A stretch of DNA of 37,153 nucleotides from Raillietiella orientalis. Its lineage: Eukaryota. Made by a program: the position numbers and the translations under genes. The notes beneath the pieces are model-generated. The model was not told where the DNA came from. It searched no databases and was given only the letters and a program-made list of their open reading frames with translations. The stretch's first letter is position 1. Each line of letters starts with the position of its first letter. Shown piece by piece: positions 4,580 to 28,278 of the stretch. Where the stretch lies: contig JAYWIR010000063.1 in NCBI GenBank assembly GCA_036172245.1, forward strand, positions 558,001 through 595,153, given 5' to 3'.

Positions 4580-5074
4580 GCCTCTGGCCCCTGTGGGACC
4601 GCTTTGCCGTGGCCCTGGGAATCCCTGGAGTCAACCCCACAGACGCTATTCGACCCCTCATCGCTCGGTCGCCAGCAAACTCGCCATGGAGCAACGGGAC
4701 GGGAGTACCCAGCGACGGGGATGCGACCGAATACGTCTTCCGCTTCTTGGGGATGGGGACGCGAAGGCCCCGCATATCCAATACCCAGCAACAGCATGCC
4801 GGCATCCTCCAAAGGATGTGACGGACACCAAAACGGATCACACTCTGCTGACTGTGATCCCTTCCCGCTCCCTCCCCAGTTTTGTTTATTTATTTGTTTT
4901 CTTTTTGTTTTTGCCCCTTCCCCTCTGCTGCTGGGATGGACCGCACCGGTCTGCGTACCTGCGACCCGGCAGGCTGCCAACAACTAGGGCGGGGGACTGG
5001 ACCATGCGTCCAGCCACAGATTCTGTAAATGTTTAATTCGAAAGAATAAACGCCCCGCCGCACACGGGTGACAA
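4580..5074 (+). mobile_element. Segment A: 5'-truncated L1/Tx1-like LINE insertion (ORF2 C-terminus + 3'UTR) with TSD and no poly(A)
   Basis: 'LWPLWDRFAVALGIPGVNPTDAIRP' matches segment H 'LRPLWERFAAALGIPGGNPRDALRP'. It ends 'GILQRM*' at 4821, as in segment J. T-rich 3'UTR and terminal motif at 5045-5070. Confidence 0.9.
5045..5070 (+). other. LINE 3'-terminal motif copy 1: AATAAA-CGCCCCGC-CGCAC-ACGGGTG
   Basis: 26-nt motif shared with five other 3' ends; inner base pair degenerate here. Confidence 0.85.
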
Positions 5075-5088
5075 ACGAGAATTTCGCA
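5075..5088 (+). repeat. Right target-site duplication of insertion A (ACGAGAATTTCGCA)
   Basis: Matches 4566-4579 with one mismatch. Confidence 0.85.
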
Positions 5089-6001
5089 ACTGCGAACTAC
5101 GGGAATGCTCGACGAATTTCGTTCAATCAAAGCAACCAATCTTATGGAGCTAATGAGCCCACGCTGATTTCCCTTTCTGTGCTAAGCAATGAGCAGCTCA
5201 GGTCCTCTGTGATAAAAGATTCGATTCTCTGCAAAGTCGCACTTCCGGTGGCTGAGAGGGCACCACCGGAACCATCCAACGCTGCAAGCAAGTCGCTGCA
5301 AAGCAAGTTCTCATGTGGGAAACCAATGTCCGCAACGTATCAATTGAGGAAGGAAGGGAAAACCGCTGCCTGAGAACAACCAAATGGTCTCTGCTCACAG
5401 AAATCTCATTAGAATACAGTGCATGATTTGCATCTCAAGTTCCCTGAATGTTACCGGCAGCTACGTGGTCTGCTCGGGAGTCCATTCTTACGAAAATTGT
5501 CTACCCCTTAAATTTTAAAGACAGCAAAGGTGGCATAGGTTAAAGAGAACACGGTTGTGTATGGGCAGAGCTGCGCAGAGATTTGTTGCAACGAATGAAG
5601 ACAAAGAAGCAGTTTCCATTTAAACATTGCAAAATGGAAGGTTAATATGGCTACTTTCGTGCTCTATTCGAATGGCTTCGGAGAAGCGCTCGTGCAGATC
5701 CTGTGGGCAACGCTGAGGTTGGGAAAAAGGGCGTTTTCCGAGCAATTGGTTTTTCTAGATGAAAAGGATTGTTGGCATTTGTGTGTACGTTTATGCTTAC
5801 AAATGCACAATAATCGAAGAGCATGTAGAAGTCCTCAAGTCCTTTTGGGATGAGAACCCATCAATCTGTCGATTATAAGGAAAGAATAAGAGCAGCGGAA
5901 TCGACATCTTGCCACTGCTGATGAAGGGATGGTTGATCTTTGCTCAAGTAACCTCTGACCTGATGATAGAGTTGTTGCATTACTGAAATTGAAGATATCA
6001 C

Positions 6002-6009
6002 CATGAGGA
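6002..6009 (+). repeat. CATGAGGA, left copy of the 8-bp direct repeat bracketing the LINE mosaic (candidate TSD)
   Basis: Identical to 28549-28556; both copies lie at or near the edges of LINE homology. Confidence 0.5.
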
Positions 6010-7407
6010 AGGATTGTGGCAGTTTAGGGGTACCTTTCGCACGTTCTGGAATAAGTGCTTTCCAGTGGTGGTATTTTGCGCGGTGCGCTGCGGCTTGCTA
6101 CGGGTTTCGTAGCCGCCGCAGAGGCCCCTGCGTTGGATTCGGCCTTTGACGATTTGGGAAGGTACAGCGAATAGAGCTGGAAGTCTTCGCCCTGTGGCGG
6201 TCTTCCTCCTCACCTACCTTTCCTACCGGGGGTCTTCGGAATTTCCCGGTTCCTGGCTTGGAGAGGTGCTTACCATAACGGCAGCGAGGGCGGGCACGGC
6301 ACTTGTCGAGCCCTCGCGCCCCTTTTTAATTGGCTTCCCCGCCGTGATTTCTCCCTTTTGGGGCGTTGCAGGTGGGGACGCCTGTTGCTTAGCCGCGTAT
6401 TGCTTGGCTCTTTCGCCAAGACTTCGCGTACAGAGTTTTTTCTTGGGTGCAGCGGCCTTTCGTGAATTGGTCTCTTTGACGCGACGAAGTTCCGCTGCTG
6501 CCCTTTTTTTTGCAAGTACCATGCACTTTTTGATTTCGTGCCCGGTTTCTTTGCAATAGCGAAATTTAGGGGTGAGATATTCTTTCATTCGGTATCCCTC
6601 CTTGCCGTACTACTCGCACGCGCGAGTGTTGCCTATGAACCACAGGTGAACGACCGTGCTGTTCACCTGCAGCTGCTCAGGTACAACACGCCTGTTCGCG
6701 ACGGTGATCCGCGCGGAGGCTTGTCCAATGTGGACAGAGGGGAAATCCTTTAGAGGATTTGGCCTCCTCCACAGAGCGTGCACGGTGGCGAACTTCGCCA
6801 GCACACTTACGACATAGCGGTCGGAGATTTCCGGCTCGATGTTGCACAATTGGACGACAAACGAGTCGTCCATCACGAAAGGCAGGACTCCCTTGCCACC
6901 GATGGACAATGGAGTACGGAGAAGGCGCTGCACAAGTGCCGCGTCCTTGCACCGTATCTTTGTGTATTCCATCCTGCCCACAGGCATGATAGCAAGGAGC
7001 TCCTCCTCCCGAACGCCGATACGGACGAGCTCATCGTTGAGCTCACGCCCGATCCTCCTGCTAAGGGGCCCACTGACCTTATAACAAAGTGCGGGCATGT
7101 AGCCGGATGCCACATAAGCCTGCAACTCCGCATCGCAGGGTCCTGCTCCCTGGGAGGTGACGGCGGCGTAGCTCCTCACCGAAGGCGAGGAAACCGTCAC
7201 GGAGGATGCGGCCGCTTGCATTCCAATTGAATTGGATTCAACGGCTGACTTCTCCTTACCATTCTTAGAAGTGGCCATGCTGCACTACGCTGCTTCGTCC
7301 ACTTCCAAGAAGCACACAAGTGCGAGCGAAAACTCACGCACAAAGATGCTCAATCACGGACGCAAAGAGACGCGAAAACACGTCTGTACTGTGCGAGCGC
7401 AGGAGAT
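6010..7407 (-). pseudogene. Segment B: LINE 5'UTR + ORF1 (ATG 7278), disrupted and 3'-truncated
   Basis: 'RSYAAVTS' motif; degenerate knuckles 'CE*YGKEGYRMKE' and 'RYCKETGHEIKKC'; in-frame stops at 6610 and 6223; homologous to segments D and F. Left limit uncertain (6010-6040). Confidence 0.85.
7371..7385 (-). promoter_or_regulatory. DPE-like internal promoter motif AGACGTGTTTTCGCG in the segment B 5'UTR
   Basis: Matches 11806-11820 (GGACGCGTTTTCTCG) at a similar distance (~21-23 nt) from the element 5' junction; fits the RGWYV DPE consensus. Confidence 0.45.
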
Positions 7408-8758
7408 TTCTCACCCGGTCACGCCGGGGCGTTTATTCCATATAACTTCAACATAAACAATTATATAAAATAAACCAGTTGGAAACCATGCCCCCAACCG
7501 ACGACGGAACAAGAATCAATAGAAGATTGCTGGCACGCAGGCCAGAATAACACAGAACGGTGTGGGGGTACTGGGGACACAAACAAACAAAAACAAAAGA
7601 CAAACAAATCAATGGGGACACCGGGACAAGGGTCTTTCAGATGGCCGTGGTTCGCACCGGGATAATAGTAATGGCACCGGCATTTTAGCAGAGCGAGTGG
7701 GGATGGGGTATGGGTGGGCAAGAGGTCGCAGGGGTCACCGGATTACGCCGTTCTCAAAGGTCTGTATACCTGCGATGTATGCCGGTGATGTCCTCATTCA
7801 CCTTGTCACGAAGATGAGACCACCTAGCAGCCTTTTTCATGGATTCTGCTGCAAATTGGTGAGCCTCCCTTCGCTGCAATGACAACTCGAGGGCGTAGAG
7901 GGCCTTCACGATGGCGCGAATGCAACACATGGTTGCAACAATCGCACCTACCGAAAATCCATCCCTTCTGAAGAAGCGCCACAGCACATCAATTGCAGTG
8001 CCTCCCTGCGGCAGGATGGCTGAAATCAGCCTTCGCCACAGTTCACGGAGGTCACCGCAGTCCAGCAAGAGGTGCGTAAAAGACTCGATCTCTCCGCACC
8101 TCAAACAGTTTGGCAAAGCAGCACCCCCGGAAACGATGCTTCGCTGCCTATTACAGTGAAATGCACAATGTAAAAAGAGCAGCACATCTTGTTTCCATTT
8201 TAAGCAAAACATGGAGTTGTCCAGACAAACGGGGGGAACCACTATCTCTTCGGGGGTTACACTTAAATGTTCACTCCACCGAAGCAGGCCCTTCGCCCGA
8301 TTACGAGGAGTGGCAGTTTCCACCAGCTCCTTTGTCGTCCAGCCGCCGAGGAGCTTACTGACTCCCGCTTTTTTGCCGGAGAATTCCCATTCCGCCGGTA
8401 GGCTACTGTCGTCGCTTTTCCTCAGGGCAGACAGTGCTGCGGCGAGTATTGTGGCGGTTAGACGATCCGACTTCTTGTCCTGCATGACTTCGTCCATTGG
8501 ATGACTGAGGAGAAGTCGCAGGAGACGAAGATATTTCTGGCGCGTTCCTTCGGAAGCTGCCCAAGATGAAAAGGATTTCTGCCGCCATGCATTATTGTTC
8601 ATAGGGAGGCAGGAGATCCAACATTGGGCATCCAGCAGTGAGGAAAGCTGCCTCAGCGGGAAGCCAAGTAATATTCTGGTGTGCTGAATGTGGGGCAGCA
8701 ACAAAAGCAGTCCCTCGCTTCCCGTGCAGCGCCTTAGTATAAGGCGTGCAGGTAAGCA
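7408..8758 (-). pseudogene. Segment C: LINE ORF2 C-terminal ~335 codons (stop at 7754) + 3'UTR; same family as G
   Basis: 'CLRCGEIESFTHLLLDC' zinc finger; colinear with 13731-15083; 5' breakpoint at 8758. Confidence 0.92.
7412..7437 (-). other. LINE 3'-terminal motif copy 2: AATAAA-CGCCCCGG-CGTGA-CCGGGTG
   Basis: Read directly from the sequence. Confidence 0.9.
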
Positions 8759-9748: not shown

Positions 9749-11785
9749 ATTCACACCCGGATGTGCCGGGGCATTCATTTCAGTGAAATAAAAACACAGG
9801 AAATTTTGCGTGGCAATCCCCAAAGTTCACCACTCCAAAACAGCTTTATGGTTACCGGCTGCATGCCGGAGAGGTCCTAGCGATGCGCGGGTATAAGAAA
9901 TAACAAACAAAAAGAAACAAAAAGTTCAAATGTGGGGGGGGGAACAAATGTTTTAGGGGTAGCAGGGCAGGGAAGGGATCACGTTGCGCGTGGACAGGTC
10001 CTCTAGATCCTATTCAGGATCCGAACAAGCTGAGTCCTTTCAGCGCTTGAGTGGCGCCACTTGCAGACACTGCGTGCGAAAAGGCGAGTCCAGTGTAAGG
10101 CGTTGCCGGTTGGCTGACGCCTTCTTCTGGTGGCGTTCCAAGCCACCACTATTCCTCTGATGCAGCAGAGGACTTCTACGCTAGCGGGCGGGGACAAGGC
10201 GTCACTACAGAAGAGGCGCCTTAAAACGTCCTTTGGGCCGCATTGTCGCAACTCCAGGATCGCCGCGAGACGATCCCACAAAGGGCGGAGGGCTCTGCAC
10301 TCAAAGAGAAGGTGAAGGAATGTTTCCTTTTCCCCACACCGGTCACAATTAGGATCCACAGTCCCCCGGGTGGTGTGATGCAGGCGTGTTTTGAATAGTA
10401 ATCCCCAGAGTACCACAAGCGACGCCACATCCTGCCATTTCAGGGGGAGGGATGCACTGTTCCAGGACTCTGGGGGCCACTTCACCTCCTCCGGAGATAG
10501 TCCGAGTAGCTCGCCCCAGCGTCGAATTCCGTTGGGCGGCACACTCGGCGTCGCAGCGTCAGCTAGCTGCCGAGATGTCCACGCCTTTATCGATTGTGTC
10601 CTGCCGCCTATGGTGCAGGACAAGGTCCATTTCCCATGCTCGCTACTGTCCCTGGCATTTTCAAGGAAGGGCAGCACTGGGGCAAGGGGGGTTATCAGAG
10701 CCCACAGAAGCTGGTCATGGGACTGCACGATCTCCTGCAGCGTCCAGCGGGCGTGCCTTTCCAGGCAAGTGTTCCTTGTGCCCGCCGGAACGTGGATCTT
10801 TTCCCAGGAGGACACTGACTCGTGCAACCAGGCAGAGTAGTTCTTTGGGAGGCAGGAGATCCAGGCGTTTTCCCGAACCGCAACGGCCATGCGTCGCAGG
10901 TGAGAGCCACAATGTGCTCTTCTGCCGAAGCGCGCAGACAGAAACGACAAAACTCCGCCAGATCCGCAGGTTCGTTGGGCCAGGAAGCGTGCTGGAACGC
11001 ACCAAGGCGTATCCCACAATTCGGCCGCGAGGGCGGGAGTCCTGAACTGGAGTTGCAGTTCCATGCGCTCCAGCGTAAGTACGCCAAGTCCACCGTCCTT
11101 AAGTGGAGCGCACAAGTCTTTGAGCCTCACACGGGACCTCCCTTTGGAGAAGGCGAAAAAGGGGAACCGCAAACGCGTTCCACACCGCGGCCTGTTTCTG
11201 CAGGTAGAACTTGGTTTCTTGGAACAAACCGATCGCCAACGCTGCCTTTTGGAGACGGTCGGACCAGGCTTCTGCTGCGCAGTATTCCCCCAACGGAACG
11301 CCAAGGTACTTGAAGCACCTGCACGTGGGGATCCCCAAGCGGATCCAGTCCGACCGTCCAGCCCACGCCGAGCCAACACAAGCCATCGTTGCCTTCGCCC
11401 TGTTCTCCTCCAGGCCCGTCCCGCGGCGCAGCAACTCGAAGAATTCCTCGAGTGCACTTGCCGGGGTGAACCCAGGAAGCAGCAGCAGAAGATCATCTGC
11501 ATAGGCCGACACGGCTGGCGTGCCGGCACACGAGCTCGGTAGTGTTGCCAGAGTTACCCTGTATGCCCTCAGCACCAACTCGAAGTAGATGCTGAAGAGC
11601 AAAGGGTTCAAACTGTCACCCTGCCGGATGCCGCGGCGAACTGGCACGCCGTACACGTGCAGGCCGCTGAAACCAATATTTATATACGCGTTGCGCCAGC
11701 AGGAACGCAGGTTAGACCGGAGCACGGACGGGAAACCCATGCGTTCCAGGAGCTCCAGAAGGAGATCCTGGTCGACGCAGTCGAC
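9749..11785 (-). pseudogene. Segment E: 5'-truncated LINE ORF2 (RT core to stop at 10003) + 3'UTR; same family as L
   Basis: 'DCVDQ', 'RGIRQGDSLNPLLF', 'AYADDL', 'KYLGVPL', 'GGLG', 'CDRCGEKETFLHLLFEC'; frameshifting deletion near 11150. Confidence 0.95.
9754..9779 (-). other. LINE 3'-terminal motif copy 3: AATGAA-TGCCCCGG-CACAT-CCGGGTG
   Basis: Read directly from the sequence. Confidence 0.9.
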
Positions 11786-11805
11786 CGGCTTGCGTGCTCC
11801 AGGGT

Positions 11806-11913: not shown

Positions 11914-11996
11914 GCCAGGGGACAGCGGCAACGCCGCCCCCAGAGGCGATGGAGAGCCAGGGGGCGGCGGCAACGTCGCCCCCAGAGGCGATGGAG
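11914..11996 (+). repeat. 42-bp coding tandem duplication in ORF1 of F (QGTAATPPPEAMES / QGAAATSPPEAMEV)
   Basis: Two units 42 bp apart. Confidence 0.9.
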
Positions 11997-13726
11997 GTGG
12001 GGGCATCCGCCCCCACAGAATCGGTCCCCGCTGCAGCGCGGGCGTGGAGCGCCGTTGTGTCGGCGCCATCGCCTGCAGCCGCGGCGGAATTGTCGGCCTA
12101 TGTAGAGGAGGGGTACAACCCCTCATTGTTCTACAAGGTAGGCAATTTATATTCTTTAGAGAGCGCGCGCCTTCTCGAAGGGCATGCGCGCTGTCGATGT
12201 GAAAGAGGAGGAGCTTAGCGCTATGACCATCCGCAGCGGGGGTCAGTACGTTGAGGTCATCTGCGAACATGCAGAGCTGGCCCAACGACTGCTTAAAACC
12301 CTTGTTGTGATGGGGAAGCGCAGGCTCCTCCCCACTACGGCGGACCGCAGCATGGTGGTCCACCTGTTAGGCGTAACCGCGCGAATACGCAAAGAACAGG
12401 TTGGCGCCGCTTTGGAACAGTTCGGAACGGTCCACGCGCAGTGGACGAAAGTTAGTCCTTTCGAGGACTACACGGGGCTGCAACACGGCCTCACTGCTGC
12501 GCGCGTGACCGTTCGGGAGGGCTGCACTCTTCCCCACAAACTGGTGGTCAAAGGCGAAACCGTCGACCTCTGGTATGTGGGGAAGCCGAAATACTGTGGC
12601 TATTGCAATACGTCGGGCCACCTCAAAAAGAGGTGTCCCAATGTGCAGTGCCAAGTATGCGGCACAATGGGCCACACGAGGGAGGTGTGCCCAAAAGCAG
12701 CAGTGCGGGTGGTTTCCAAGAGAAACCTTAAAAAACGCGCCCGGCTTCTGCAGAAAAGACTGGCGGCGAAAGCTGCCGCGAAGGCTGTGCCACCCGCGCC
12801 CAAGGCCCCGGCCGCAACCGAGACCCCGACGAACAACGCCGAACAAGTCGAGGGAACAAGCCAGGAGCCTGGGTGGCAGGTGGCTACGGCCAAAAAATCA
12901 AAGAAGGAGAGGAGGATGGAAAAGAAAATCGCCTACCAACAGAAGAAGAAAGAGCAGGGTAGCGCGATAATTAAAGAGTGCAGCGTCGTTGTCGAACGCG
13001 TTCTCGATGTTGCCGAACGCTGCCGGAAAGAGCTCGCCGCTACCGACGACCTCCCCTCGGTTGACACAGTCAACAGCGAGGGGAGCGAGCCGGCGGCGGC
13101 GTCCGTCATCGACACCACCATCGACGACGTAGCCTTCGCGCGAGCCGCGGAGGAGCTGGCAGCTTCGTTGCAGACAGAACCCTCCAAGGCTGGCAAGAAG
13201 GCCGTAAGGCGTCCGGCCTCCCCTCAGTAGTCCCGCACTTCCGACCCCGAGGTGGAGGCCGGAAGCGCAGCCTGCGTTTCCACGGCACCGCGCAAGAAGG
13301 CTGGACGTAAGTCCACAAAGCCAAGGAAGCTCGTCTCCCCCGTCGAAGGGGAAGAGATGGCTTCCGCAAGCGAGGGTGCCATGAGCGTGGGAAACTCTCG
13401 GGTCCCCTCGCCCGAGAGACTCCCACGCGCGGACACGGAGGGGATGGAGGAGGTGGAGGCCGAACAGGTGCCTCAGGTGCCTGAGAAGGCCGAAACCCCC
13501 ATGGACATCCCGCCCGCCTCGCAAGAGGCGGGCTCCCCCACACCTTAATCTTCCCAGCAGTAATGCCGGGAATCTCCTCCTGCCGTCGTCTGCGCATCGC
13601 CGTTTGGAACGTGAACGGCATGACAGACGCAGGCAGGAGACGAGACATGGCCGCCCTTCTGGAGTCCTACGACCTTGCGCTGCTGCAGGAGATCCACGTG
13701 ATCTCCGCAGAACAAGCGCAAAAGAT

Positions 13727-16700
13727 TTCTCACCCGGTCACGCCGGGGCGTTTATTCCATATAACATAACCAAAAAAAGCAATTATACAAAATAAACCAG
13801 TTAGGAACCAAACTCCCAACTGACGACTGAACAAGAATGAAGAGAATATTACTGGCACGGAGGCCACAATAACAGTTTTGCGAACGGTATGGTGGGGCGG
13901 GGAACACAAAGAAACCAGAATAAAATAAAAACAATCAATAAGCAGGACGGGATAAGGGTCTTTGGGATCGCTCTGGAAGACACGGGAATAAAAGCATGGG
14001 CACCGGAAATTTTACCAAGCGAACGGGCACGGGGTATGGGTGGGCAAGAGGTAACAGGGGTGACCGGATTACGCCGTTCTGAAAGATCTGTAAACTGGCG
14101 ATGTATGCTGGTGATGTCCTCTTTCACCTTGTCACGAAGATGAGACCACCTTGAAGCCTTCTCCATGAATTAAGCTGCAAGCAGCTGAGCCTCCCTTCGC
14201 TGCGCTGACAACTCCAGGGCGTAGCGGGCCTTCACGATGGCGCGAACGCAACACATGGTTGCGACAATCGCGCCAATCAAAAGTCCATTTCTGCTGAAGA
14301 AGCGCCGCTGCACATCAATGGCAGTGCCTCCTTGTGGCATGATGGCCGAAGGGAGCCTTCGCCACAGTTCCCGGAGGTCAACGCAGTCCAGCAAAAGGTG
14401 CGGAAAAGACTCGATCTCTCCGCACCTTGAACAGTTTGGCAAAGCAGCTCCCCCGGAAACGATGCTTGGCTGGCTATTACAGTGAATAGCACAATGTAAA
14501 AAGAGAAACACATCTTGTTTCCTCTTTAAGGGGGAAACGGAGCTGTCGAAACAAACGAGGAGAACCAATACCTCTTCGGGAGGCACACATAAATGTTCTC
14601 TCCACCGAAGAAGGCCCTTCGCCCCATTCCGAGGAGTGGCGGCTTGCACCAGCTCCTTTGTCGTCCAGCTGCCGAGGAGCTTACTGACTCCCGCTTTTTT
14701 GCCGGAGAATTCCCATTCCGCCGGTAGGCAACCGTCGTTGCTTGCCCTGAGGGCAGACAGCGCTGCGGCGAGTGATGTGGCGGCCAGACGATCCGACATC
14801 TTGTTGTCCTGCATGACTTCGTCCACTTGATGAATGAGAACTCGCAGGCGTGAAGATATTCCAAGCGCGATCCTTCGGAAGCTGCCCACGATGAAAAAGA
14901 TTCCTGCCGCCATGCATTAATGTTCATGGGGCGGCAGAAGATCCAGCTTTGAGCTTCCAGCAGTGAGGACAGCTGCCTCAGCGGGAAGCGAAACTCTATT
15001 CTGGTGTGTCGAAAGTAGGGTAGCAACGAAAGCAGTCCCTCGCTTCCCGTGCAGCGTCTCAGTATAAGGCGTGCGGGTAAGCACCAAGGCATACACCACA
15101 GCTTGGCACAGGGCCGCAGCATGCGAAACTGCACCTGCAGTTCGATGCTGTTTAAGTCGAGGATGCCCAAGCCTGCATCCTGACGCAGCGCCACCAAGTC
15201 TTTAAGTCTAACACGGGATCTTGCAGCACCCCACAACGCTTTGCGTAGAAGGCGCTGCGCCCAGACTTCGAGTTCCTGTGGGGGTGGACCAACAAAAAAC
15301 AGGGGGCGGAGGAGGGGGGCAACGAAGGTGTTCCAGTAGCAGGCCCGTTTCGACAAGACTAACTGGCCTCCTGAAAATGGGCCAAGTGCACGCTCTGCCT
15401 TCCGAAGGCAGTCCGACCACGCTTCTGAGATGCAGAGGTCGCCCAACGGCACGCCAAGGTACCTGAGGTACCTGCCCGTGGGGATCCCCAGGCCAATCCA
15501 GTCGGACTGCCGCTCCCACATCGCACCCACCGGAACAACCATACACTTACTCCTGTTAACGCTCACGCCCGCACCGCGACGAATCAACTCAAAGAAGTCT
15601 TCAAGCGATGTCGCCGGGGTGGACATGGGCAACAGGAGAAGCAGGTCGTCGGCATAGGCTGCCACGGCGGGCGTACCTGGACAGGAGCTCGGCAGGTTGG
15701 CTAGCGTCAGCCTGTAAGCCTTCAGCCCCAATTCAAAATAGATGCTGAAGAGCAGCGGGCTTAAGCTGTCACCCTGCCTAATTACTCGTCGTAACGGCAC
15801 GCCGTTCATGCGACAGCCACTGAAAAATAAGGTGTAATCGCGTGGCGCCAGCAGAAGCGCAAGTACGCCAACAGGGTTGCCGGAAGACCCAGACGTTCCT
15901 AAAGCTCAAGAAGAAGCTTTTGGTTCACGCAATCGGAAGCTTTGTGCAAATCGACTGCAACCGCCAAGGCTCCCGGTGTCTCCCTTTGCGTCCCGCGCCT
16001 CCGTCGGTGAGAGATCGAAGGCGTCGCTTCCGCACGACGATCCACCGCCACACGATGCTGCAATTGCAGCCATGTGCGGATGAACAAGAGATTTGCGTCC
16101 ATGGACCGTTCAGGAACAGCGTACGTCTGATCCGGACTTAACAAGGATTCCGCGATCCTACCCATCCGCGCCACCCGAAGTTTCGACAACAACTTGACAT
16201 CCGAATTCACTGATGTGATCGGACGCCCGTTGTTCAGTTGGCGCAAATCTCCAAAATTCGGCAGTAGACGCACATTTGCTGATCGAAACGAGGCGGGTAC
16301 ATCGCCCGAGTCTCGCATCAGCGACGAGAGTTGGAGCACCAGGAGGATGAGCTCCGCCGCAAAACACTGGAAGAATTCCGCGGGGAACCCATCTTCGCCT
16401 TGCGCTTTTCGTTTCTTGAGCCCCGAGATGGCCGAGGAAATTCCCTCTGCCGTGAAGGGCTCATCAAGACGCGCGCGTTCCTCCTCGTCTAGAACAGGTG
16501 CATCAATCGGCAGGAGCAGCCGGGAAAGGCTGCGTTCCGTTGGTGCCTCTGCATACAGAGAAGAGTAATAGCGCCTGACTATCCGTCGCACGTCGGCTGG
16601 AGCCGAGCATTCCCGGTCCTGGTCGTCGAGCAGAACTGTCGCCCCTGACTGCCAGACCTGGCGCTCGGCCTTGGCCTTGTACTCGGATAATCGACCAACG

Positions 16701-18350: not shown

Positions 18351-21300
18351 TTAATCAGTTAATTGTGATCGTGTGTGCCCGGAGAGGGGAAGTTTCCAGA
18401 CGAAACTACAAAAGAAGCGCCAAGGAAATCGCCGCGGAAGACCTTCAGTAGTCCCGTGCAGCATGACCAGCTGCCAGGATGCAGGCACCTGGAGGAGGAG
18501 TGGAGAGACCGTCGTCCCCCATGGAAGCCATGGAGGTAACGTGCGGCAACGGCGAGGCGGTGGCAGGCATGCCGAGGATCGCGCCCGCGGAGGGCTTTGC
18601 TGCGCCGGCGGCGGCGACGCCAAGGGTCGTGCCCGCGGCGACGACGGCGGAGGTCGTGCCTGCGGCGGCGATGCCGAGGATCATGCCCGCGGCGGGGAAG
18701 GTTGCGCCTGCGGCGGCGATGCCGAGTGTGCCGCCCGCGGCGGCAACGGTGGCGACGTCGAGGGTTGCGCTCGCGGCGGCGGCGTCCCAGGCAGAACCCG
18801 CAGGCGTCCACGCGGTTCAGGGCGAGACGCCATCTTGTTCGGCTGCGGCGGCGCAGCCCTTTTCCTATGCGTTGGTGGCGGCTGGACAAGTGGGTGTCCA
18901 CCCACCTAGAAAATTCGGAAAGCCGCTATGCGGCAAAGTCCAAAAGGTGGATCGGACAATCGTGGATTTAGGGCCGAATGTGAAGCCCATCATTTTCAAG
19001 ACTGAGCTGATCAAATTCAATAATATCAGGGAGGTGTATCTGTCCCTCGATAAAACGGATATTAATTTTGATCGCATAAAAGCGATCATATCGGCAAATA
19101 ACGGGTTCACAGTCTTCACAGACTGTGAAAATCTTAGAGAGCGATTGATCCAGAAGGAGATCAATATACAAGGGAGGATGGTTTCTGGTATTGGCAAAAT
19201 GCCATACACAACCGTCTTTCTGAACGGCATCTTCATCCTCACACCGCAACTAACGGTGTAGAATTTTTGGAGCTGTATGGGGAAGTTCTGGACCTTGAAT
19301 TCCAGAACTTCTCTGGAAATATATTTTCTGGCGACATGATCGTCAAAATGAAGTTGAAAGAGGGAGCTGTGATCCCTGGATTAGCCGTTCTTGACGAACA
19401 ATCCCATTGAGTGAACGTGCGTTACCGGCAACAACCGATATTCTGCACCGGGTGCAAGCAGTTTGGTTATAGAACCGGCGCTTGCCCAACGTGTCGTTGT
19501 TTCCGCTGCGGCAAAGTAGGACATCAAGTCCGAAACTGCCCGCAGCCGGAGGTGTGCTCCTTCTGCAAGAAACACGGACATGCTAAATGGAGCTGTCCGG
19601 AGCTTGCAAACTGCAGAAGGATTCGAGGTCTCTCTTCCGTGAGAGAGAGAAACACCAAGAAGACGGAACAGCCTTAGAAGGCAGGAAGGCCGAAGAAGCT
19701 GAAACAAGCCGTCCCGGTATCGCAACACGGCTTCATACAGGTAGGGAAGGAAGGAAAGAGGAGGATACTCGTCAAGGATCAAGAAACCCCTCTTATCCTG
19801 GAAGGTAAGGAGCCGGAAGGCCAGAAGATAGAGTTAGCGCAAAAAGGCGCGGAAGAAGAAATATCCGAAGCTACTCCGGTGTCGCAAAAGGCCCTGCAAT
19901 CTACGGAGGAGCTGGCATCACTGGCTAATGAAGTCCTAGAGGTGCAGAGCGGTCCCCAGCAAGAGAAAGTCTTGCAGAGGATCTGCAATGCACAGGAGAA
20001 GGTCAACCAGGTTGTGAAGGTCACCGAGCGCGAGAAGCTAGAGGAACAGCTTCTCGACGTAAAGGCGAACTTCTGCGCCAAGGTCGAAATAGAGGCGCCA
20101 TCTGGAAAATTGATCGCGCGTGCCGAACACTGCACGGAGAAGGCGGAAGTAACCGACCTCACCGGAACAGAGAGTGACGCCGGCAGCGAGAAGCCAACTG
20201 CTTCTTCATTGTCTGGAAGAGCACGCTCTCTCAGACAGAAGAAGCTCAGGAAGGCCAAGAAATAGGTCTTCCCCTTTTATGGCCTCTTCCCTATCGACCG
20301 CCAGGTGGCTGAACATCGCCTCCTGGAATCTGAACGGTGTGGTCGACCAGGGAAAAAGAAAAAGGATTGTGCGGACCATCGCACAACAAGACATAGTGTG
20401 CCTGCAGGAGACCCACAAGATGGATCTCGAGATTAGTCAGCAAATGGAACGGCGATTTAACAGGCAGATGTTCGTCAGCGAGGAAGAACGGAACACGCAG
20501 GGTGTGGCGGACCTAATCAAGAACAACTTGGCTTCCACTATTCTGGAATTGTTCTGTCCATAACCGAAACGAATCATCGGCGTGCAACTGTCCTGGTCCG
20601 CTACTGTTCACCTCATCCTGGTGAACGTGTAGGGGCTGCACAGGCTGAAACATCTTTGTGCGGAGGCACTGCATGCAGCACTCCGTGAAAAGGTCGCCCC
20701 CAAGGACGTCGTGATTGTTGCAGGCGATCTCAACATATTGGATGAGATCACTCATTCCCAAGACGCCAGAGGAAGGACGGCGTATCGGTGGCTATCCAAA
20801 GAGTTCGGACTGGTGTGGCCAACAGCAAGTCACAAGCCGATCGATCGCGTCCTGCACAGCACCGAACTAGGGAATCGCATTCAGGGTTTTCGAGACACAT
20901 TGACCACTCTGTCCGATCTCCCGTTGGTGCGGTTTTCCCTAAGAACGGAGAATCCTCGGCGGAGGCAAGGCACCAGGGCGGCGCTCATCAGCATGCCCGC
21001 CTGGTTCGAAACCCATCCCGGACATCAGGCAGTCCTGGAGACGATTCTGAAGGCAACAACAATCCGAAGAGTCGCCGACTAAGACAGCCTGAAACACAGG
21101 ATACACCTGTTAGCAAACATGCAGTTCGGGGATAGGCGCTTGAGGCAGGAGGCGTACCGGGAGCTGAAAATCCAAGATCGCATACTCTCAAAGTACTTCG
21201 ATCAGTACGAGAGTAAGTACGTCTTCAAAAACATAAAAGAGAAAGTCGGCGTGCTGGAGAAGAGAAATCTGGCAACAGATATCTTCTGCACCCAGTACGA

Positions 21301-23565
21301 CGGTCAAGAGCGACAGTCGTCCGAAGATATCGTGGATGCCTTTCAAAGGCATTACACGAAACACTTTAGGCGACAACATCTCACTCGCTCTAGTCAACAG
21401 GCCTTTCTGAGCTACCTCGAGAAGAGGACCGACGATCTCCAGCGGAACAGACTGGAGGAGGAATTCTCCGAAGACGAGGTAAAGACTGCGTTTAATGAAC
21501 TACGCAAGGACGTGGCAGCGGGCCCTGAAAGTGTACCCATCACTCACTATCAGCGGTACCTGCATGCGTAACTGCGTTTGTTCCACCAGTTGACCCTCTG
21601 CATCCGCGAAGAAGGAAGACTTCCACAGTGCTTCTACGAGAGTAGGATGAGATTGTTTCCAAAAGGAGGCGACCTCACGCAGGTCGCTCAATGGAGGCCA
21701 ATCTCGATCCTGAACTCGGTTGCCAAGTGGTTGGCGAAGATCTGGTCCAACCGCTTAGGCAAGGTCATGTCGAGGCTCATCTCTGCGGTCCAAACGTGTG
21801 CAGTCCCTGGTCGTCACATGTCGGACAATGTCAAGTGTGCCCAGGCCACCGTCGGACTCAGCCGATACGTCGGCGAGAATCTGGCGCTGGTGTTCACTGA
21901 CATGGAGAAGGCTTTCGACTCCATCGACCATGGGATGCTGCTGAAGGTTCTGGAGAAGCTAGGCCTTCCGGAACACTTCAGCATTTTCGTAAGGGTGGTA
22001 CTCCAGAACCAGTACTGCCGAATCAAAATCAACGGCCAGGAGACGGCAGCAATCCGGATGGAACGGGGAGTCCGGCAGGGCGACTCGCTAAGTCCGATGC
22101 TGTTCGTCATCTACATGGAGGCGTTGTCGTCCTTTATCGAGAAGAGCGGACGACTGCAAGGCAAAACAATCGATGGCCAGCGTCTTACCCATCTGGCATA
22201 CGTTGATGATCTACTCTCCTTTATCAAGGGAGAAAGAAATCAACGAGCGTTTCTGGATGTGGTAGACCTGATGGATCAAAACCTCGGTCTAAAGATCAAC
22301 GCCCAGAAAAGCCAGCTCTTGCCCGTTGGAATTCTCGATCTCTCCACTCTAGCGGGGAGAGGATTCCAAACGGTGGACAAGGCCAAGTACCTGGGTGTCT
22401 ACATTGGCGACGTCTCCGCGTCGAAGATATTGTGGACCGAGATCCTAGGGAAAACGGCCAAGGAAGCAGCCAAGTACACCCGAACGGACCTTGGAATGAA
22501 GCGAAAGGCCAACATATGGAACGGAGTACTCCTTCCAAAAGTGCTCTTTGGGGCGGCCTTCGCGAGGATGAACAAGGACACCACGAGGAAGTTTGACAAG
22601 CTGCAGAGAAAAAGAGCGGGCCACCGGCAATGCGGGACTCTCATCCTACTTTGCACTCCAAAGCCCCATCTGCCACTGCGGACTTCAGATTCGAAGGGCG
22701 GCCAAGCTCGTGAAGACCAACTCGGAGCGGATCCTTGTACGCCCCTCGAACGGTCCTGCCTGGCTGCAGGAAACCGTCCGCACGTGGGCGATGAATCAGG
22801 AGCAGAGCCCGCAACACGAACGAATAGCTCTGTTCGGGCCGCACGCCCATTGCACGCTCCGAGAAATCATCGAGGATCCCCGAAGGAAAGCGTGGGCACA
22901 AAGAGCCTCCCTTGCTGCGGTACTGCCTACCCTACAAGAACATCTGGGCAGCGACGTCGCGGCACAATGGGAGGTAACTTTCAAGATCGACGAAAGGGAG
23001 AAGAAGATCGTGGATTGGAGAACGGGTCAGCTAAACAACGCTGCGACCCCGAGGACCACCCCACACGGACTCTTGCGCTGGGGCGAGCTATTGGATGTTC
23101 CGGAGGAACAACTGGAGTGGCCCTCGGTGCTCATGGACTCGCGCACCCTCCCCTTGAAGTGGCAACAGTCGGCACTCCTGGTGTTGCTTTGAGGCCTACC
23201 CTGTAACGCCCGCCGACACCACTGGACGCTGGAGGGTGTCAACCCCAATTGTGTCAGGTGCGGGGAGAGGGAATACCTCCCCTTCCTGCTAGTGAAATGT
23301 GTTGCCCTCCGTCCCCTGTGGGAACGCTTTGCCGCGGCCCTGGGGATTCCCGGAGGCAACCCCAGAGACGCTTTGCGCCCCCACTTCTTCCGTGATGCTC
23401 TGCCTCCGGCGGCCTTGCTTGCAGCCCTGTGCTGCCTACGCGGGATCGTCGTGGCCTGGAACAAAGCGACGGGAGGGTCCAGCGACACGGACGCCAACGT
23501 GTACGCCGCCCGTTTCCTGATGATGGCGACGCGATGGCCCCATTTGGAACCCACAGCTTCAGCTT
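18351..23565 (+). pseudogene. Segment H: near full-length decayed LINE; 5'UTR, ORF1 (~18479-20265, three knuckles), ORF2 (20279 to ~23565, cut a few codons before its end; no 3'UTR)
   Basis: 'FSYALVAA'; 'CTGCKQFGYRTGAC', 'CFRCGKVGHQVRNC', 'CSFCKKHGHAKWSC'; APE 'SWNLNG..CLQETH..AGDLN'; RT 'WRPISILN', 'DMEKAFDSIDH', 'RGVRQGDSLSP', 'AYVDDL'; finger 'CVRCGERE'; stops at 20563, ~20632, 21082, 21571, 23192; deletion near 22615. Confidence 0.95.
18560..18785 (+). repeat. Degenerate GC-rich coding minisatellite in the ORF1 N-terminus of H (about 5 units like AYGCCGAGGRTCRYGCCCGCGG)
   Basis: Encodes MPRIAPAE / TPRVVPAA / MPRIMPAA / MPSVPPAA / TSRVALAA. Confidence 0.8.
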
Positions 23566-24413
23566 TATTCAGGGGTGCCTCCGAGGAGGAGGATGCGCTT
23601 CCGGCCCCCAGGTCGAACTCACCTGTGGGGGCCTTTTTCGCAGTAGCCGGCCTTCGCCCGGCCTTGCGCGAAGGATTCTCACGCTCGGCCAGCGTGGCCG
23701 CGAGCTCCTCCGCCGCCTGCGGGAACGCGGCGTCCGCGGCTTCGACCGCCGCTATGTCGCGCGGCTCACCCTCTGTTTGCACAGACGGTTCGCCGTCGCA
23801 AACTTCGGGCGCGACGGAAACGGCGAGGGGAGGCTCGTCGCCCCGGGTGGCATCCTCAGGAACGACGATACGTTCCAATGCCACCGTGCACTCGCGTAAG
23901 GTTTTCGAACGCGGCCCGGGTTTTTTTGCCTTACCGATCGACTTCTCTTTCTTCTCCTTTAAAGGAGCTTTTTTCTCTTTTCTGGCTGCTACAAGTTGCC
24001 AGCCCTCTTCACCTTCCGCCACTTGGGAAGTTTTATCCTCCGTCTTTTCTTTTGGAGGTTGAGGATGTGGCAGCTTTTGCCGGACAGCGTCCGCCTTAGG
24101 TCTTGTGACCTTTACTGCGCGTTTCCCCTGCGCCTTTTTCGCGGCAGGAGGTACCGGGGTGGGGCGTTTTGGGCACACACGTCGAACGTGTCCCTTCTCG
24201 CACATGTGGCATTGGATGTTAGGACACCTCTTGCGAAGGTGTCCTACGGTATCGCAGTAGCCGCAATACCGGGGCTTTCCCACGTACCAGACGTCCACGC
24301 ACTTTTTCGCGACCTCTAGCTTGTGGGGAAGCCCACAATCCTTATTCACGGTTACCCGCACTGCAGCCTGGCCTCCGAAATGGCTATTAAAGCCTTCGAA
24401 GATTGTTGGATAG
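23566..24413 (-). pseudogene. Segment I: internal LINE ORF1 fragment (F-like)
   Basis: 'WYVGKPRYCGYCDTVGHLRKRCPNIQCHMCEKGHVRRVCPK', 'AAEELAATL'; open frame. Confidence 0.92.
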
Positions 24414-25704
24414 CGAACCCTCGCCATCGCAGCGAAGATGTGGAGCACCGCTTGGTGCATTCCGGCCCGCCTTCTGGCCAGGCGTGTGTTTCGCTGCGAA
24501 GGACTCGCATCGTTTCGTCTGTGCCCTGGCCGGAAGATTCGAAGATGCGGTTCACTGCTCGGCCGCATGGCAACCCTGGCAAAGGAGAACGACTGGATGG
24601 TTTGTGGCCCCACCAATTCCTCCGCTTGGCTAAAGAAGACTGCTCGCACCTGGGCCAAGCAGAACCAGAGGTGCGAAGACCGGATGAACTACCTGCGAGT
24701 CGGCCTTTACGCCCGCTGAACTCTGCGTGAAATTCTTGAATTTGCACCGAGTTGCACGTGGACGGAAGGCACACCCCTTGTTACGGCGATGCCCTTCCTC
24801 CAAAGTGCGCTTCTCGAAAGCCGGAAGCCAAGGTGGCGAGTCTGCTGCCGTATCGCAGGCAGAGAGAAGATGATGAGCGGCTGGACCATGGGAGAGATGA
24901 CAGAAGCAACGACCCCTAGTCTCCAGCCGCGTGGATTAAGAAGATGGGGCGAGCTGCTCGGCATTCGATTGGATGACCTGAAGTGGCCCCCGGTTCTACT
25001 TGGATCCAGGATTCTTCCCCTGAAGTGGCCAGAATCGGCGCTTCTGTGGCTGCATTCGGGTTTACCCTACAACGCGCGCCGCTTCCACTGGACGCGGGGA
25101 AGAGTAAATCCTGCGTGTGCCAGGTGTGGGGAGCGAGAGTCGCTCCCCAACCTCTTAGTTCAATGCCCTGCCGTCCGGATTCTTCAGGATCGTCTTAAAA
25201 CGGCACTTGGGATACCGGATGGTGGCAATGTTGAATGTGTCTTCAGTCTTGTCTTCGTGCGGGACGCCCTCAGTCCAGCCGCAGCCCTGGCAGCACTTTG
25301 CTGCATTCGTGGTATCGTGGCGGCCTGGAGTGATGCCGAAGATGAAGACTGCATCGTGAGGGACGTCATCTAGTATGCTTCTTGCTTCCTGCAGAGAGCT
25401 ACCCGATGGCTCCATCTAGGAAAACTGAAAATGGAACTAGAAGGCATCCTGCAAAGGATGGGCGCTCCCAGCTGTTTTCTGTGATCCCTTACCGGCCCTT
25501 CAAACTCCTTTTGTTGTTTGTTTTTCTCTTTTATTTTATTTTTGTTTTCTCCCCCATCCCCCTCCACTGCCGAGGAGAGCCACACCGGGCTGCGTCCCGG
25601 TGTCCCGGCAGTTCCGGTATTGCGTGGCCGTCACTGGGGCCTTGTACCACGTTCTGTATTGACTGTTGAAATGTTTTTAATAAACGTCCCGGCGTATCCG
25701 GGTG
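24414..25704 (+). pseudogene. Segment J: LINE ORF2 C-terminal region + 3'UTR (fourth family)
   Basis: 'WSTAWCIPAR', 'LPLKW', 'CARCGERESLPNLLVQC', 'LCCIRGIV', 'GILQRM'; stops at 24719 and 25373. Confidence 0.92.
25679..25704 (+). other. LINE 3'-terminal motif copy 5: AATAAA-CGTCCCGG-CGTAT-CCGGGTG
   Basis: Read directly from the sequence. Confidence 0.9.
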
Positions 25705-27080
25705 GCATCGCCGAAACCTGGAGGAAGTTGATGGAGGGGAAACTGGTCACAGAACTCTCGGACTGAGCGTTTTATTTTGTCCCAGTCAGCGAGAGTCTGC
25801 AGTTCGCAACTACGCAGGAATGCGCGCAAATGTTCGCGCGCTCCTGCGAGTCGCAACCAGTCCCCCGGCAGGCGCCACGCTTCGGAGGGTGGACCTCTGT
25901 CCCGCGGATGGATGTTGAGCACTAGCCGAGGGTGATCGGACAGCTCCGACGCAAGTGCTCCTCGTGTCCCCACCCGCGTACACAAGTGGTTATCCAGGAA
26001 CACGTGGTCTATTCTGCTTCTTACCCCGGATTCATCGGCCAACAAGTTGCGTGTGTGCATAGCCGCACACAACTCGTTGACGAATTGTGCTCTTATGTCG
26101 GGCGCTTCCGACAGCAGGCGGACGTTGAAGTCTCATGCTATCAGATGCGCCCGCCGCACGCCTGCTTCAGCCAGCCAGTCTTGCCGCAGGGCTTCGAAGA
26201 ACGCAGTGCGTTCTCCGCGCCTGTGGCTGGTGCATGGCGCGTACACGTTCGTAACTACGAGGTCGATCGATTCGGACCACTTGAGGACAAGTTGCCCAAC
26301 TCGACCTTCCTCGTCGAAGTGTGCACTGCGCACCGCATTAGCGACGGCCGGCTTCAGCAGAAAGGCCACTCCGCGGGAGTGGTCTCCTCCACAACGCCAT
26401 AGTAGCCTCCCCCCTGTGAGCCTCTCGATTTCCTGGACGTCCTCTCCTCTCAGGGCATGCACCTCTTGGAGAAGTGCCAGGTCGAAAGCTCGCAGGGTGT
26501 CAACCACGCTACGCCTCTTGCTTTCGCTACGCAGCCCGTTGACATTCCAACAGGCTATACGTAGCTGCCGGCAAGAGGCGATTCCACGCATCATGCTAAT
26601 GATGGTGGTGGCGATTGTGTAGCCGCCTCCTGTTCGGGAGGCGGCTGGTCGATGTCCACCTGTATAGGCTGTGTTCCGAAGACGACCGGAACGTCGGCAG
26701 CCGGACTGAGATCGATGGGAATGTCGCTCCGTACACTCTCCAAGGAAGGATCCCGCGACCTCGCGGACATCGCCTCCTCGCTACCCGAGCGCATCCCCTC
26801 CTCATCAGCCCGAGGGGGAGCGACGCGCATAGGGTTGCGAGACTTCCGGCCCGCCTTCCTCTTCGGGAGGGCGACGGTGGGAGTGTTTCCTGCTTCCGCC
26901 TCGGACTCGGAAGTTTCCGGGCCCTTGACTTCCGCCGGACGTCTTATGACCTTCTTTGCAGCCTTAGGCGGCTGCATTAAGGTGGCCGCGAGTTCCTCCG
27001 CCGCCTTTGCGAAATTTTTCTCGTCGCTGGTGCTTGCGTTCTTGCCGCAGATTTCCTGCGGAGGTTCCGCGGCGTTAGCG
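25705..27080 (-). pseudogene. Segment K: ORF1 C-terminus (stop 26591) + ORF2 APE domain (ATG 26594), truncated at both ends
   Basis: 'AAEELAATL'; 'CWNVNG..LLQEVH..NVYAP..IA*DFN..IDHVF..SDH'; ORF1 stop and ORF2 start overlap as ATGA. Confidence 0.93.
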
Positions 27081-28278
27081 TTTTCACCCGGATATTCCGG
27101 GGCATTTATTTCGAAAAACAAAAATACATTAATTTTTCGAGTGGAGAACCCGGAGGTGCACCACGCCAAAACAGCTTACTGGCTCCCGGCTCTATGCCGG
27201 AGAGGTCCGTCCGATGCGCGGGGGTTGGGACAGAAAAAACAAAACAAACAAAAAGTTAAAACACGGGAGGGGATAAATGTTTTAGGGATGGGAGGGCAGG
27301 GAAGGGATCACTTTGCGCCCGGATAGGTCCTCTAGATCCTATTCAGGATCCGGACAAGCTGAGTCCGCTGTGCGCCTAAGTGGCGCCACTTGCATACAGC
27401 TCGCACGAATAGGCGAGTCCATCGTAAGGCGTTGTCAGTTGGCTGACGTCTTCTGGTGGCGTTCCAAGCCGTCACGATCCCTCGAATGCAGCAGAGGATT
27501 GCTACAGAAGCGGGGGGGGACAAGGCGTTACTACAGAAGAGGCGCCTGAAAACGTCCTTGGGGCCGCATCCGCGCAAGTCCAGGATCGCCGTAAGGCGAT
27601 CCCATAAAGGACGGATGGCACTGCACTCAATGAGAAGGTGGAGGAAGGTCTCCTTTTCCCCGCACCAGTCGCACTGGGGATCCACAGCCTCCCGGGTGGT
27701 GTGATACAGGCGTGCTTTAAAGGGTAAACCCCAATGCATTACAAGCAACGCCACCTCCTGCCATTTAAGGGGGAGAGATCCACTGTTCCAGGACGCTGGG
27801 GGCCACTTCATCTCCTCCGGAGATAGTCCGAGTAGCTCGCTCCAGCGTCGAATTTCGTTGGGCATGACACTCGGCGTCGCAGCGTCCGCTAGCTGCCGAG
27901 ATGTCCACGGCTTTATCGGTTGTGTCCCTCCGATTACGGTGCAGGACACGGTCCATTTCCCCAGCTCCCTACTGTCCCTGGCACTGATGAGAAAGGGCAA
28001 CACTGGGGCAAGGGGGGTTATCAAAGCCCACATAAGCTTGTCGTGGGACTGCACGATCTCCTGGAGCGCCCAGCGGGCACGCCTTTTCAGGCAAGTGTTC
28101 TTTGTGCCCGCCGGTACGTAGATCTTTTCCCAGGTGGAGACTGACTCGTGCAACCATGCCGAGTAGTTCTCTGGGAGGCAGGAGATCCAGGTGTTCTCCC
28201 GTACCACAACGGCCATGCGTCGCAGGTGAGAGCCACAATGTGCTCTTCTGCCGACGCGCACAGACAGAAACGACAAAA
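27081..28278 (-). pseudogene. Segment L: LINE ORF2 C-terminal 314 codons (stop 27332) + 3'UTR; same family as E
   Basis: Colinear with 9754-10952; 'CDWCGEKETFLHLLIEC'. Confidence 0.93.
27085..27110 (-). other. LINE 3'-terminal motif copy 6: AATAAA-TGCCCCGG-AATAT-CCGGGTG
   Basis: Read directly from the sequence. Confidence 0.9.

Follow-up and report, generated by a model that had tools for sequence, protein, structure and literature searches.

A conserved motif of AATAAA and a candidate hairpin ends several diverged L1-like LINE families without poly(A) in a 37-kb window of Raillietiella orientalis

Results and Discussion

Several diverged families of L1-like long interspersed elements (LINEs) share one 26-nucleotide (nt) motif at their 3' ends in a 37,153-nt stretch of the Raillietiella orientalis genome (assembly GCA_036172245.1, contig JAYWIR010000063.1, positions 558,001 to 595,153 of the forward strand), which we call the window and within which all positions are given. 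The motif, AATRAA-YGY-CCCGG-N5-CCGGG-TG, joins a hexamer of the poly(A)-signal type to an inverted repeat that could fold into a hairpin of five base pairs (bp) with a five-nt loop. It sits within a few nt of the end of inserted DNA, as marked by a target-site duplication (TSD) at one element and by junctions between inserted and host elements at others; it is kept between families whose adjoining 3' untranslated regions (UTRs) align no better than shuffled sequence; and no poly(A) follows it. These results bear out the proposal of an earlier annotation made from the letters alone (the sequence-only reading) that the motif is a conserved 3'-terminal signal of several diverged LINE families. 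Our preferred interpretation, held with modest confidence at a little better than even chance, is that it forms a combined 3'-end module, in which a poly(A)-type signal is coupled to a hairpin that fixes the start of reverse transcription.

Motif copies and consensus

The motif was read directly, at its constant length of 26 nt, at all six sites and strands listed in the sequence-only reading. The loops (CGCAC, CGTGA twice, CACAT, CGTAT and AATAT) are as given there, and so is the stem of the first copy, which is down to 4 bp and carries two stem changes relative to the consensus. The hexamer is AATAAA in five of the six intact copies and AATGAA in that of element C1. The covariance model that had been suggested as a check was built with 34 columns from these six copies as seed and run over the whole window without filters. 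It scored the six seeds at 44.5–50.8 bits (E 1e-9 to 1e-10) and found a seventh, decayed copy, absent from the earlier list, at the end of an older LINE remnant (N). The differences of this copy from the consensus are transitions, its hexamer reads AATATA, its UTR is T-rich like those of elements A and D2, and the sequence after it, GTAAGCAG, is without poly(A). Three extra model matches of 9–10 bits (E 4–8) were disregarded. The copies are as follows, with the letters of the LINEs that carry them and the model scores.

5045..5070, + strand: copy 1, element A, AATAAACGCCCCGCCGCACACGGGTG, stem of only 4 bp, 45.0 bits
7412..7437, - strand: copy 2, element B1, AATAAACGCCCCGGCGTGACCGGGTG, 50.8 bits
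9754..9779, - strand: copy 3, element C1, AATGAATGCCCCGGCACATCCGGGTG, AATGAA in place of AATAAA, 45.5 bits
13731..13756, - strand: copy 4, element B2, AATAAACGCCCCGGCGTGACCGGGTG, 50.8 bits
25679..25704, + strand: copy 5, element D2, AATAAACGTCCCGGCGTATCCGGGTG, 44.5 bits
27085..27110, - strand: copy 6, element C2, AATAAATGCCCCGGAATATCCGGGTG, 46.1 bits
36459..36484, - strand: copy 7, element N, decayed, AATATACGCCTCGGCACATTCAGGTG, 20 bits, E 0.012
~30396..30440, - strand: possible trace, very decayed, where the 3' end of the old element E is expected (...AACAAATGAC...TCGGGTGAGAA), seen in a MAFFT alignment only and missed by the covariance model scan of the window

The core of the motif is more frequent than expected. 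The pattern CCCGGN5CCGGG, with at most one mismatch, has six matches in the window against 1.25 expected, and none of 100 shuffles reached six. Five of the matches are copies 2 to 6; copy 1 falls outside the threshold, and the sixth match, at 25604, is a different, weaker inverted repeat within the D2 UTR. The motif had also been said to end every LINE. This is true of the elements whose 3' end is still present (six, or seven with N), but not of at least seven pieces that lack 3' ends (D1, F, H, J, K, M and P), and E has a trace at most.

The motif was not found on its own, in the manner of a short interspersed element (SINE), in the 37 kb searched: all seven model matches lie at LINE ends. 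In the window as a whole, no match to an Rfam family attained the gathering score, and a search for transfer RNA genes found none. A histone-type 3' stem-loop, with its 6-bp stem and 4-nt loop, was ruled out by the 5-bp stem, the 5-nt loop and the lack of an Rfam match.

Insertion ends and tails

The motif lies at the end of the DNA that was inserted. Element A is flanked by an 11-bp direct repeat, ACGAGAATTTC, at 4566–4576 and 5075–5085. Because these repeats bound A, its inserted DNA is 4577–5074 and ends in ...CGGGTG-ACAA, that is, the motif plus 4 nt. At B2, D2, C1 and C2 the length of any tail is limited, since the sequence just outside the motif is recognisable as another LINE. Endonuclease codons of element H reach to 0–3 nt from the end of the B2 motif, and coding sequence of element F (…GFGD, matching GFGE of B2) to 0–4 nt from that of D2. 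Homology to the first open reading frame (ORF1) of element M begins 3 nt past the C1 motif, and the C-terminus of the F ORF1 begins 7 nt past the C2 motif by a weak tblastx match or 50 nt past it by tblastn. Searches for TSDs at B1, B2, C1, C2, D2 and N, both exact and with two mismatches allowed, gave nothing convincing. A possible degenerate TSD for C2 was dropped, as P and F, the pieces on either side of it, would then lack about 80 residues that are present in H and K.

What follows the motif is short and similar among copies. The four nt after it are ACAA, AGAA, TGAA, AGAA, GCAT, AAAA and GTAA across the seven copies, with A at the third position in all seven and at the fourth in six. The longest run of A after the motif is 4, so the earlier observation that neither poly(A) nor a longer A run follows holds for every copy. 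From these letters, a uniform module of 30 nt ending in NNAA probably fits all copies.

Conservation across families

The motif forms a sharp island of identity between families. Outside the loop, 17–20 of 21 positions are identical between families, compared with 1–3 of the 5 loop positions. The 100 nt directly upstream are 0.43–0.57 identical between families, against 0.49 ± 0.03 for shuffled 100-mers run through the same aligner, which agrees with the earlier remark that the surrounding UTRs are poorly alignable between families; within families, UTR identity is 0.74–0.79. Recent exchange of 3' ends is excluded as the source of the island, because exchange would bring flanking identity too. 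As a pattern of letters, the island points to selection in active lineages. Copy 7 illustrates neutral decay, with CCCGG changed to CTCGG and CCGGG to TCAGG. The loops do differ in the way described by the sequence-only reading, which held that they vary freely, but those of C1 and C2 differ inside one family, so that free variation is not separable from decay after insertion.

LINE families and their map

A GC-rich block from about 4.5 to 28.5 kb of the window is composed of LINE pieces. Pfam domains were sought on stop-to-stop frames of both strands, and those found were Exo_endo_phos, RVT_1, zf-RVT and zf-CCHC. The motif copies thus sit at the 3' ends of L1-like LINEs that encode an apurinic/apyrimidinic (AP) endonuclease, a reverse transcriptase (RT) and zf-RVT, with an ORF1 that carries CCHC knuckles. 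We mapped the elements by tblastn, using outside homologues and the window's own ORF1 and endonuclease pieces as queries.

4577..5074, + strand: element A, a 498-bp 5'-truncated LINE of a D-like family with an 11-bp TSD, ending in the motif plus ACAA; its 5' part is 84% identical to the D1 C-terminus
7395 downwards, - strand: element J, 5' part including ORF1 (tblastn)
7412..8758, - strand: element B1, C-terminal part of ORF2 and 3' UTR, 84.5% identical to B2 (7396–8758 against 13715–15083)
9750 to ~9289, - strand: element M, ORF1 piece (tblastn)
9754..~11880, - strand: element C1, 5'-truncated within the RT, with RVT_1 and zf-RVT, 85% identical to C2 across 9754–10952
~11930 to 13730, + strand: element H, ORF1 and start of the endonuclease (tblastn)
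13731..~17660, - strand: element B2, endonuclease, RT and C-terminus, inserted in antisense in the N-terminal part of the H endonuclease (tblastn and codon comparison)
19411 to ~23575, + strand: element D1, ORF1 knuckles at 19411, endonuclease from ~20250, RT at 21100–22600, C-terminus to ~23575 (tblastn)
24688 to ~23580, - strand: element K, ORF1 (tblastn)
~24410..25704, + strand: element D2, 5'-truncated ORF2 C-terminus and 3' UTR, adjoining F coding sequence in antisense
27084 to 25705, - strand: element F (tblastn)
27085..28278, - strand: element C2, 5'-truncated zf-RVT part and 3' UTR, between ORF1 pieces P and F
28548 to 28276, - strand: element P, ORF1 piece (tblastn)
~33171 to ~30400, - strand: element E, an old, AT-richer relative of D1
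3' end at 36459, - strand: element N, older LINE remnant

Three families can be told apart in addition to N: B1 and B2; C1 and C2; and a D-like family, in which the UTRs of A and D2 are alignable and the 5' part of A matches D1. The families in the window are 65–85% identical. Judged by their domain set and the structural relatives of their RT, these LINEs belong to the L1 group. The nearest solved relative of the RT is human L1 ORF2p (E 7e-34), ahead of R2 at 1.5e-24, and ORF2 combines, as in the L1 clade, an N-terminal AP-type endonuclease with an RT and with a C-terminal domain rich in Cys. The poly(A) or A-rich end that is usual though not universal in the L1 clade is not seen here, the longest A run being 4.

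The RT has few close relatives among known proteins. Two protein searches of large collections returned no homologue above 35% identity, and the few named homologues, from plants, a lizard, a fish and invertebrates, are 27–33% identical. A protein atlas search with the RT gave generic RT clusters only. The ratio of observed to expected CpG is about 0.8–1.2 across nearly the whole window, unlike a CpG-methylated vertebrate genome.

Proposed working of the module

We propose that the motif and the few nt after it would act as one module of about 30 nt, made up of AAUAAA, a YGY spacer, a hairpin (5-bp stem CCCGG/CCGGG, variable loop of 5 nt), UG and NNAA. Selection in the active lineages of every family would keep this module while the rest of the 3' UTR drifts. 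The module would act in cis on the LINE RNA and have two linked jobs. In the first, AAUAAA and a U-rich tract upstream would set the 3' end of the RNA about 20–24 nt downstream, just past the hairpin. In the second, the protein of the LINE itself (ORF2p, and possibly ORF1p) would grip the end of the RNA by the hairpin. Target-primed reverse transcription (TPRT) would then begin at a set position, a few nt beyond the stem, and not inside a poly(A) tail. A protein-held hairpin that fixes the start of the complementary DNA (cDNA) could account for the uniform ends of the copies and the lack of poly(A), whereas random priming in an A tail would not give this pattern. A role in RT recognition, in 3' processing or in both, as the sequence-only reading had supposed, is the natural reading of such a motif and matches stringent-type LINEs. 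By analogy, we infer that these elements are best read as LINEs of the stringent type within the L1 group that leave no poly(A).

The sequence around the motif is consistent with the first of these jobs. The 60 nt upstream are T-rich in six of seven copies (0.38–0.53, against 0.26–0.32 further upstream), TGTA occurs within those 60 nt in four of seven, and the end of the inserted DNA of A, at the motif plus 4 nt, falls 24 nt after the hexamer. Cleavage usually takes place 10–30 nt after AAUAAA. In its layout, the sequence corresponds to a poly(A) site with the putative hairpin occupying the spacer. For the second job, predicted ensemble probabilities of the 5-bp stem, computed with 80 nt of upstream context, are 0.97 in C2, 0.92 in B2, 0.74 in D2 and 0.45 in C1.

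Several observations weigh against the combined module. The whole evidence base consists of seven copies in one 37-kb window, and no relative was found elsewhere. The stem has a predicted probability of 0.33 in B1 and of 0.00 in the two copies with damaged stems, A and N. Covariation is absent: five of seven proposed pairs are invariant, one changes from C-G to U-G (on one side), one is broken in A, and no pair has changes on both sides. An RNA hairpin therefore fits no better than a conserved primary sequence or a DNA palindrome. The folding model pairs AAUAAA with a U-rich (TTTATT-like) arm upstream in A, B1, B2 and C1 (P 0.82–1.00), which could hide it from the cleavage machinery. Lastly, B1 and B2 share 13 of 16 nt right after the motif (AGAAATCTYYTGCGCT; 7396–7411 and 13715–13730, - strand), so the RNA of family B may end 16 nt further on.

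This shared flank may have three origins, namely a longer tail in family B, one target that was hit twice, or a flank carried along with the element. The 16 nt after the B2 motif read as H endonuclease codons and match other endonucleases (Q-K/E-I), which favours target sequence at B2. Beyond the corresponding 16 nt, the flank of B1 has only weak and mutually inconsistent endonuclease-like matches.

Two further folding features concern the surroundings of the stem. The pairing of AAUAAA with the upstream arm (for example at 7438–7477 and 13757–13796) reaches values attained by 0–3 of 100 upstream shuffles, and it is not predicted in C2, D2 and N. In the folding model, a second hairpin made of AAUAAA and the U-rich arm is thus possible, and it is not general. 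The sequence-only reading had also described a possible extension of the stem by G-U and Y-G pairs, with a pyrimidine bulged out (Y7-G26, G8-U25). These bases do pair on paper in 97% of cells, but their ensemble probability is below 0.1 in every copy.

Alternative explanations

The module could instead be a pure host signal. In this case the motif would be a compact RNA polymerase II cleavage and polyadenylation site, in which the hairpin replaces a downstream element or positions the cut, LINE proteins are uninvolved, and priming takes place at the first residues of the tail. Much of the sequence around the motif fits such a site: AATAAA is near-invariant (AATGAA once), the upstream T-richness and TGTA occur in six and four of seven copies, respectively, and the end defined by the TSD lies 24 nt past the hexamer. 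A stem sequence that is invariant across families is also what one common host reader would impose, and Grem-LINE1 and vertebrate L1s are described with a terminal poly(A) signal (10.1101/706580, PMC5381506). The ends of the copies do not fit. Priming on poly(A) predicts variable and sometimes long A tails, yet all seven copies have 4 A or fewer, and a LINE that relies on poly(A) should leave it behind, as vertebrate L1s do (PMC5381506). AAUAAA is moreover predicted to be paired in four of seven copies. We consider a host signal acting alone unlikely.

A bolder version of the LINE-protein reading would see here an L1-group lineage that no longer depends on poly(A) at all. Its invariant GC stem would serve the ORF2 proteins of all sister families as a shared handle and would also be a ruler that places the cDNA start exactly 6 nt past the stem, regardless of what comes next, and the loop would confer family specificity. 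The same handle would let the RT jump to the 3' end of a second LINE RNA and so produce head-to-tail arrays without TSDs, of which the window has three. We regard this extended scheme as doubtful.

The three candidate arrays are same-orientation joins between LINEs, C1-M (9750–9753), B1-J (7395–7411) and C2-F (27078–27084), at which no TSD was detected. They could reflect template jumping, or nested insertion followed by loss. The sequence-only reading had gone further and suggested that the common motif could let the RT of one family prime on RNA from another and so explain the mosaic of LINE pieces as a whole; jumping from one template to another is a second form of this idea. The stem and its flanks are indeed common to three families, and the three joins without a clear TSD are what jumping to a second RNA 3' end would give. 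However, the resolvable junctions have the appearance of nested insertions and deletions. At A there is an 11-bp TSD, B2 and D2 cut the coding sequence of other LINEs in antisense, and C2 lies between P and F, flanked on both sides by ORF1 pieces in its own orientation, as in a simple nested insertion. Two other joins, M-to-B1 and P-to-C2, lie away from RNA 3' ends. Cross-mobilisation as such leaves no trace that would be visible in a window of this kind. The proposed origin of the mosaic thus finds no support at the readable junctions, and we judge it quite improbable that cross-family priming produced it.

Deletions also shaped the region, since D1, K and J have 3' truncations of a kind not produced by TPRT. 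The alignment of D1 to A breaks off at about 23575, the point at which D1 (+) meets K (-) tail to tail, both without their 3' parts. In part, the long minus-strand open frame that crosses this point (23030–24688) is an artefact that GC-rich coding DNA gives in antisense. No useful alignment was obtained for the 5' ends of J and H.

An element acting at the level of DNA is highly improbable. Here CCCGG-N5-CCGGG would work as double-stranded DNA, either bound by a dimeric protein or favoured as a target by new LINE insertions, which would build LINE-on-LINE arrays. Invariant stem bases around a variable spacer are typical of a palindromic protein site, and three of seven motif ends are followed directly by a LINE in the same orientation (C1-M, B1-J and C2-F). 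Against this, the motif of A is inside the inserted DNA and its TSD is unrelated, the head-to-tail junctions have no TSD although insertion beside the motif would leave one, and any insertion adjoins LINE sequence in a region that is nearly all LINE. A symmetric site also leaves unexplained why the asymmetric AATAAA, YGY and TG flanks are equally conserved. That the motif has no function, its identity being due to recent 3'-end exchange between families or to chance, is scarcely credible: the copies number only seven, with two pairs from the same family, but recombination would have brought UTR identity where the sequence directly upstream is at shuffle level, and the shuffles, together with the E-values of the model, leave no room for chance.

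Comparison with known LINEs

Elements of the L1 group are the textbook case of "relaxed", poly(A)-dependent LINEs, and it has been proposed, mainly on plant data, that dependence of L1 lineages on a hairpin is ancestral. What an RT accepts as template decides what else gets copied, for example SINEs and processed pseudogenes. A compact, sharply bounded module of 30 nt that has an invariant stem and a free loop, lacks poly(A) and is present in several diverged families of one genome would be a convenient natural system, as it would allow stem recognition to be tested against loop recognition, and RNA 3'-end formation against priming. We note that seven copies in one window are a lead and not yet a result.

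The motif resembles the ends of stringent-type LINEs of the L2 clade. UnaL2, ZfL2-1 and ZfL2-2 have a short conserved terminal stem-loop, with a shared stem and differing loops (PMC4176376; PMC3747384). Binding of the ZfL2 ORF2 proteins to this 3' stem-loop is specific with respect to the loop and general with respect to the stem (PMC4176376). More generally, the ORF2 protein of these LINEs binds the tail, and reverse transcription is independent of poly(A) (PMC4176376; PMC3747384). As expected of the stringent type, the 3' terminus here is far better kept than the UTR (17–20 of 21 positions against shuffle level). In contrast, the ends of these L2-clade LINEs consist of short repeats in tandem, for example TGTAA (PMC3747384), whereas the elements in the window have no repeat tail, encode L1-like proteins and carry a candidate hairpin fused to AAUAAA.

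Conserved 3' hairpins are also known within the L1 clade, in the plant "monocot 1a" lineage and in L1-1_CR of Chlamydomonas, where they have been read as a sign of stringent recognition (PMC3747384). As in those elements, the last tens of nt are much better conserved than the rest and could form a hairpin. The plant hairpin differs in that its stem varies with compensation while its loop (UCU) and 3' flank (CGAG) are conserved, and it has a poly(A) end (PMC3747384); here the stem is invariant, the loop variable and poly(A) absent. Vertebrate L1 3' UTRs have pyrimidine (T- or C-rich) tracts followed by AATAAA (PMC5381506), and such tracts are found here in A, D2 and N. In vertebrate L1s, however, poly(A) follows directly after the signal (PMC5381506) and there is no terminal hairpin; the present elements have CCHC knuckles in ORF1 and lie in DNA with a CpG ratio near 1.

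Grem-LINE1 of the pericentric regions of Mucorales is similar in several respects. It has a zinc-finger ORF1, an AP endonuclease, RVT and zf-RVT, a 3' poly(A) signal, and gene-free clusters of tens of kb (10.1101/706580). The window shows the same domains and is itself a LINE cluster free of genes. Assignment to Grem-LINE1 in that work calls for at least 30% identity and 50% coverage. Compared by description only, Grem copies in Mucor form highly similar clusters (10.1101/706580), whereas the families in the window are 65–85% identical. The available Grem-LINE1 text mentions no terminal hairpin, and the terms "hairpin", "stem-loop" and UTR are absent from PMC7377519. We treat this likeness as a lead only. 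One neighbour cluster in the protein atlas has Mucoromycota as its commonest phylum, a weak hint.

In R2, the element's protein binds the 3' UTR and TPRT starts from the exact RNA end; R2 is site-specific, with a restriction-like endonuclease and a large structured 3' UTR. The likeness concerns only the working proposed here, which would share with R2 a structured 3' end held by protein, independence of poly(A) and precision of the 3' junction. Unlike that of R2, the RT here is a better match to L1 ORF2p.

Hairpin-type signals at LINE 3' ends are thus already known, and what looks new is an invariant-stem hairpin fused to AAUAAA in an L1-like element without poly(A). A literature search of partial coverage found no description of such an end.

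Searches outside the window

The full 26-nt pattern was also sought outside the window. Among metagenome contigs it occurred at nine loci that represent three distinct GC-rich or bacterial-looking sequences without LINE context, one of them behind the end of a ribosomal-protein-like gene. Prokaryote genome contigs had five loci, in bacterial records and without LINE context, and viral contigs had none. These numbers are about what chance gives.

The LINE families themselves are abundant elsewhere, as a public DNA run (X1) contains hundreds of contig pieces from diverged relatives. This run shares 0.10 of the window's words; no RNA run turned up in the same search. At 80% likeness, 646 pieces of its contigs fall on the window, mostly below 90% identical (range 80–99%), with the highest depth over the D1 RT and the 3' end of D2. 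Among the loose ends and joints of these contigs that were listed, none is at a motif end.

Other features of the window

Some further features were noted along the window. A 12-mer, CCGGGTGGCATC, consisting of the 3' half of the motif and D2 flank at 25698–25709 (+), recurs at 23843–23854 in the K ORF1; it may be due to chance (about 0.01 expected per 12-mer, by our own estimate) or be a minute remnant. The stretch 2001–4000 has a GC content of 0.37–0.42 and a strong skew of C over G (-0.39). Within it, the observed/expected CpG ratio is 0.16 at 2001–3000, compared with 0.6–1.2 in the rest of the window, and a perfect 29-bp tandem duplication lies at 2275–2333. An imperfect tandem array, GC-rich and with periods of 27–48 bp, occupies 18569–18780 in the interval from the 5' end of B2 to that of D1, and similar low-complexity runs coding for Ala, Gly and Arg are found at 11914–11996.

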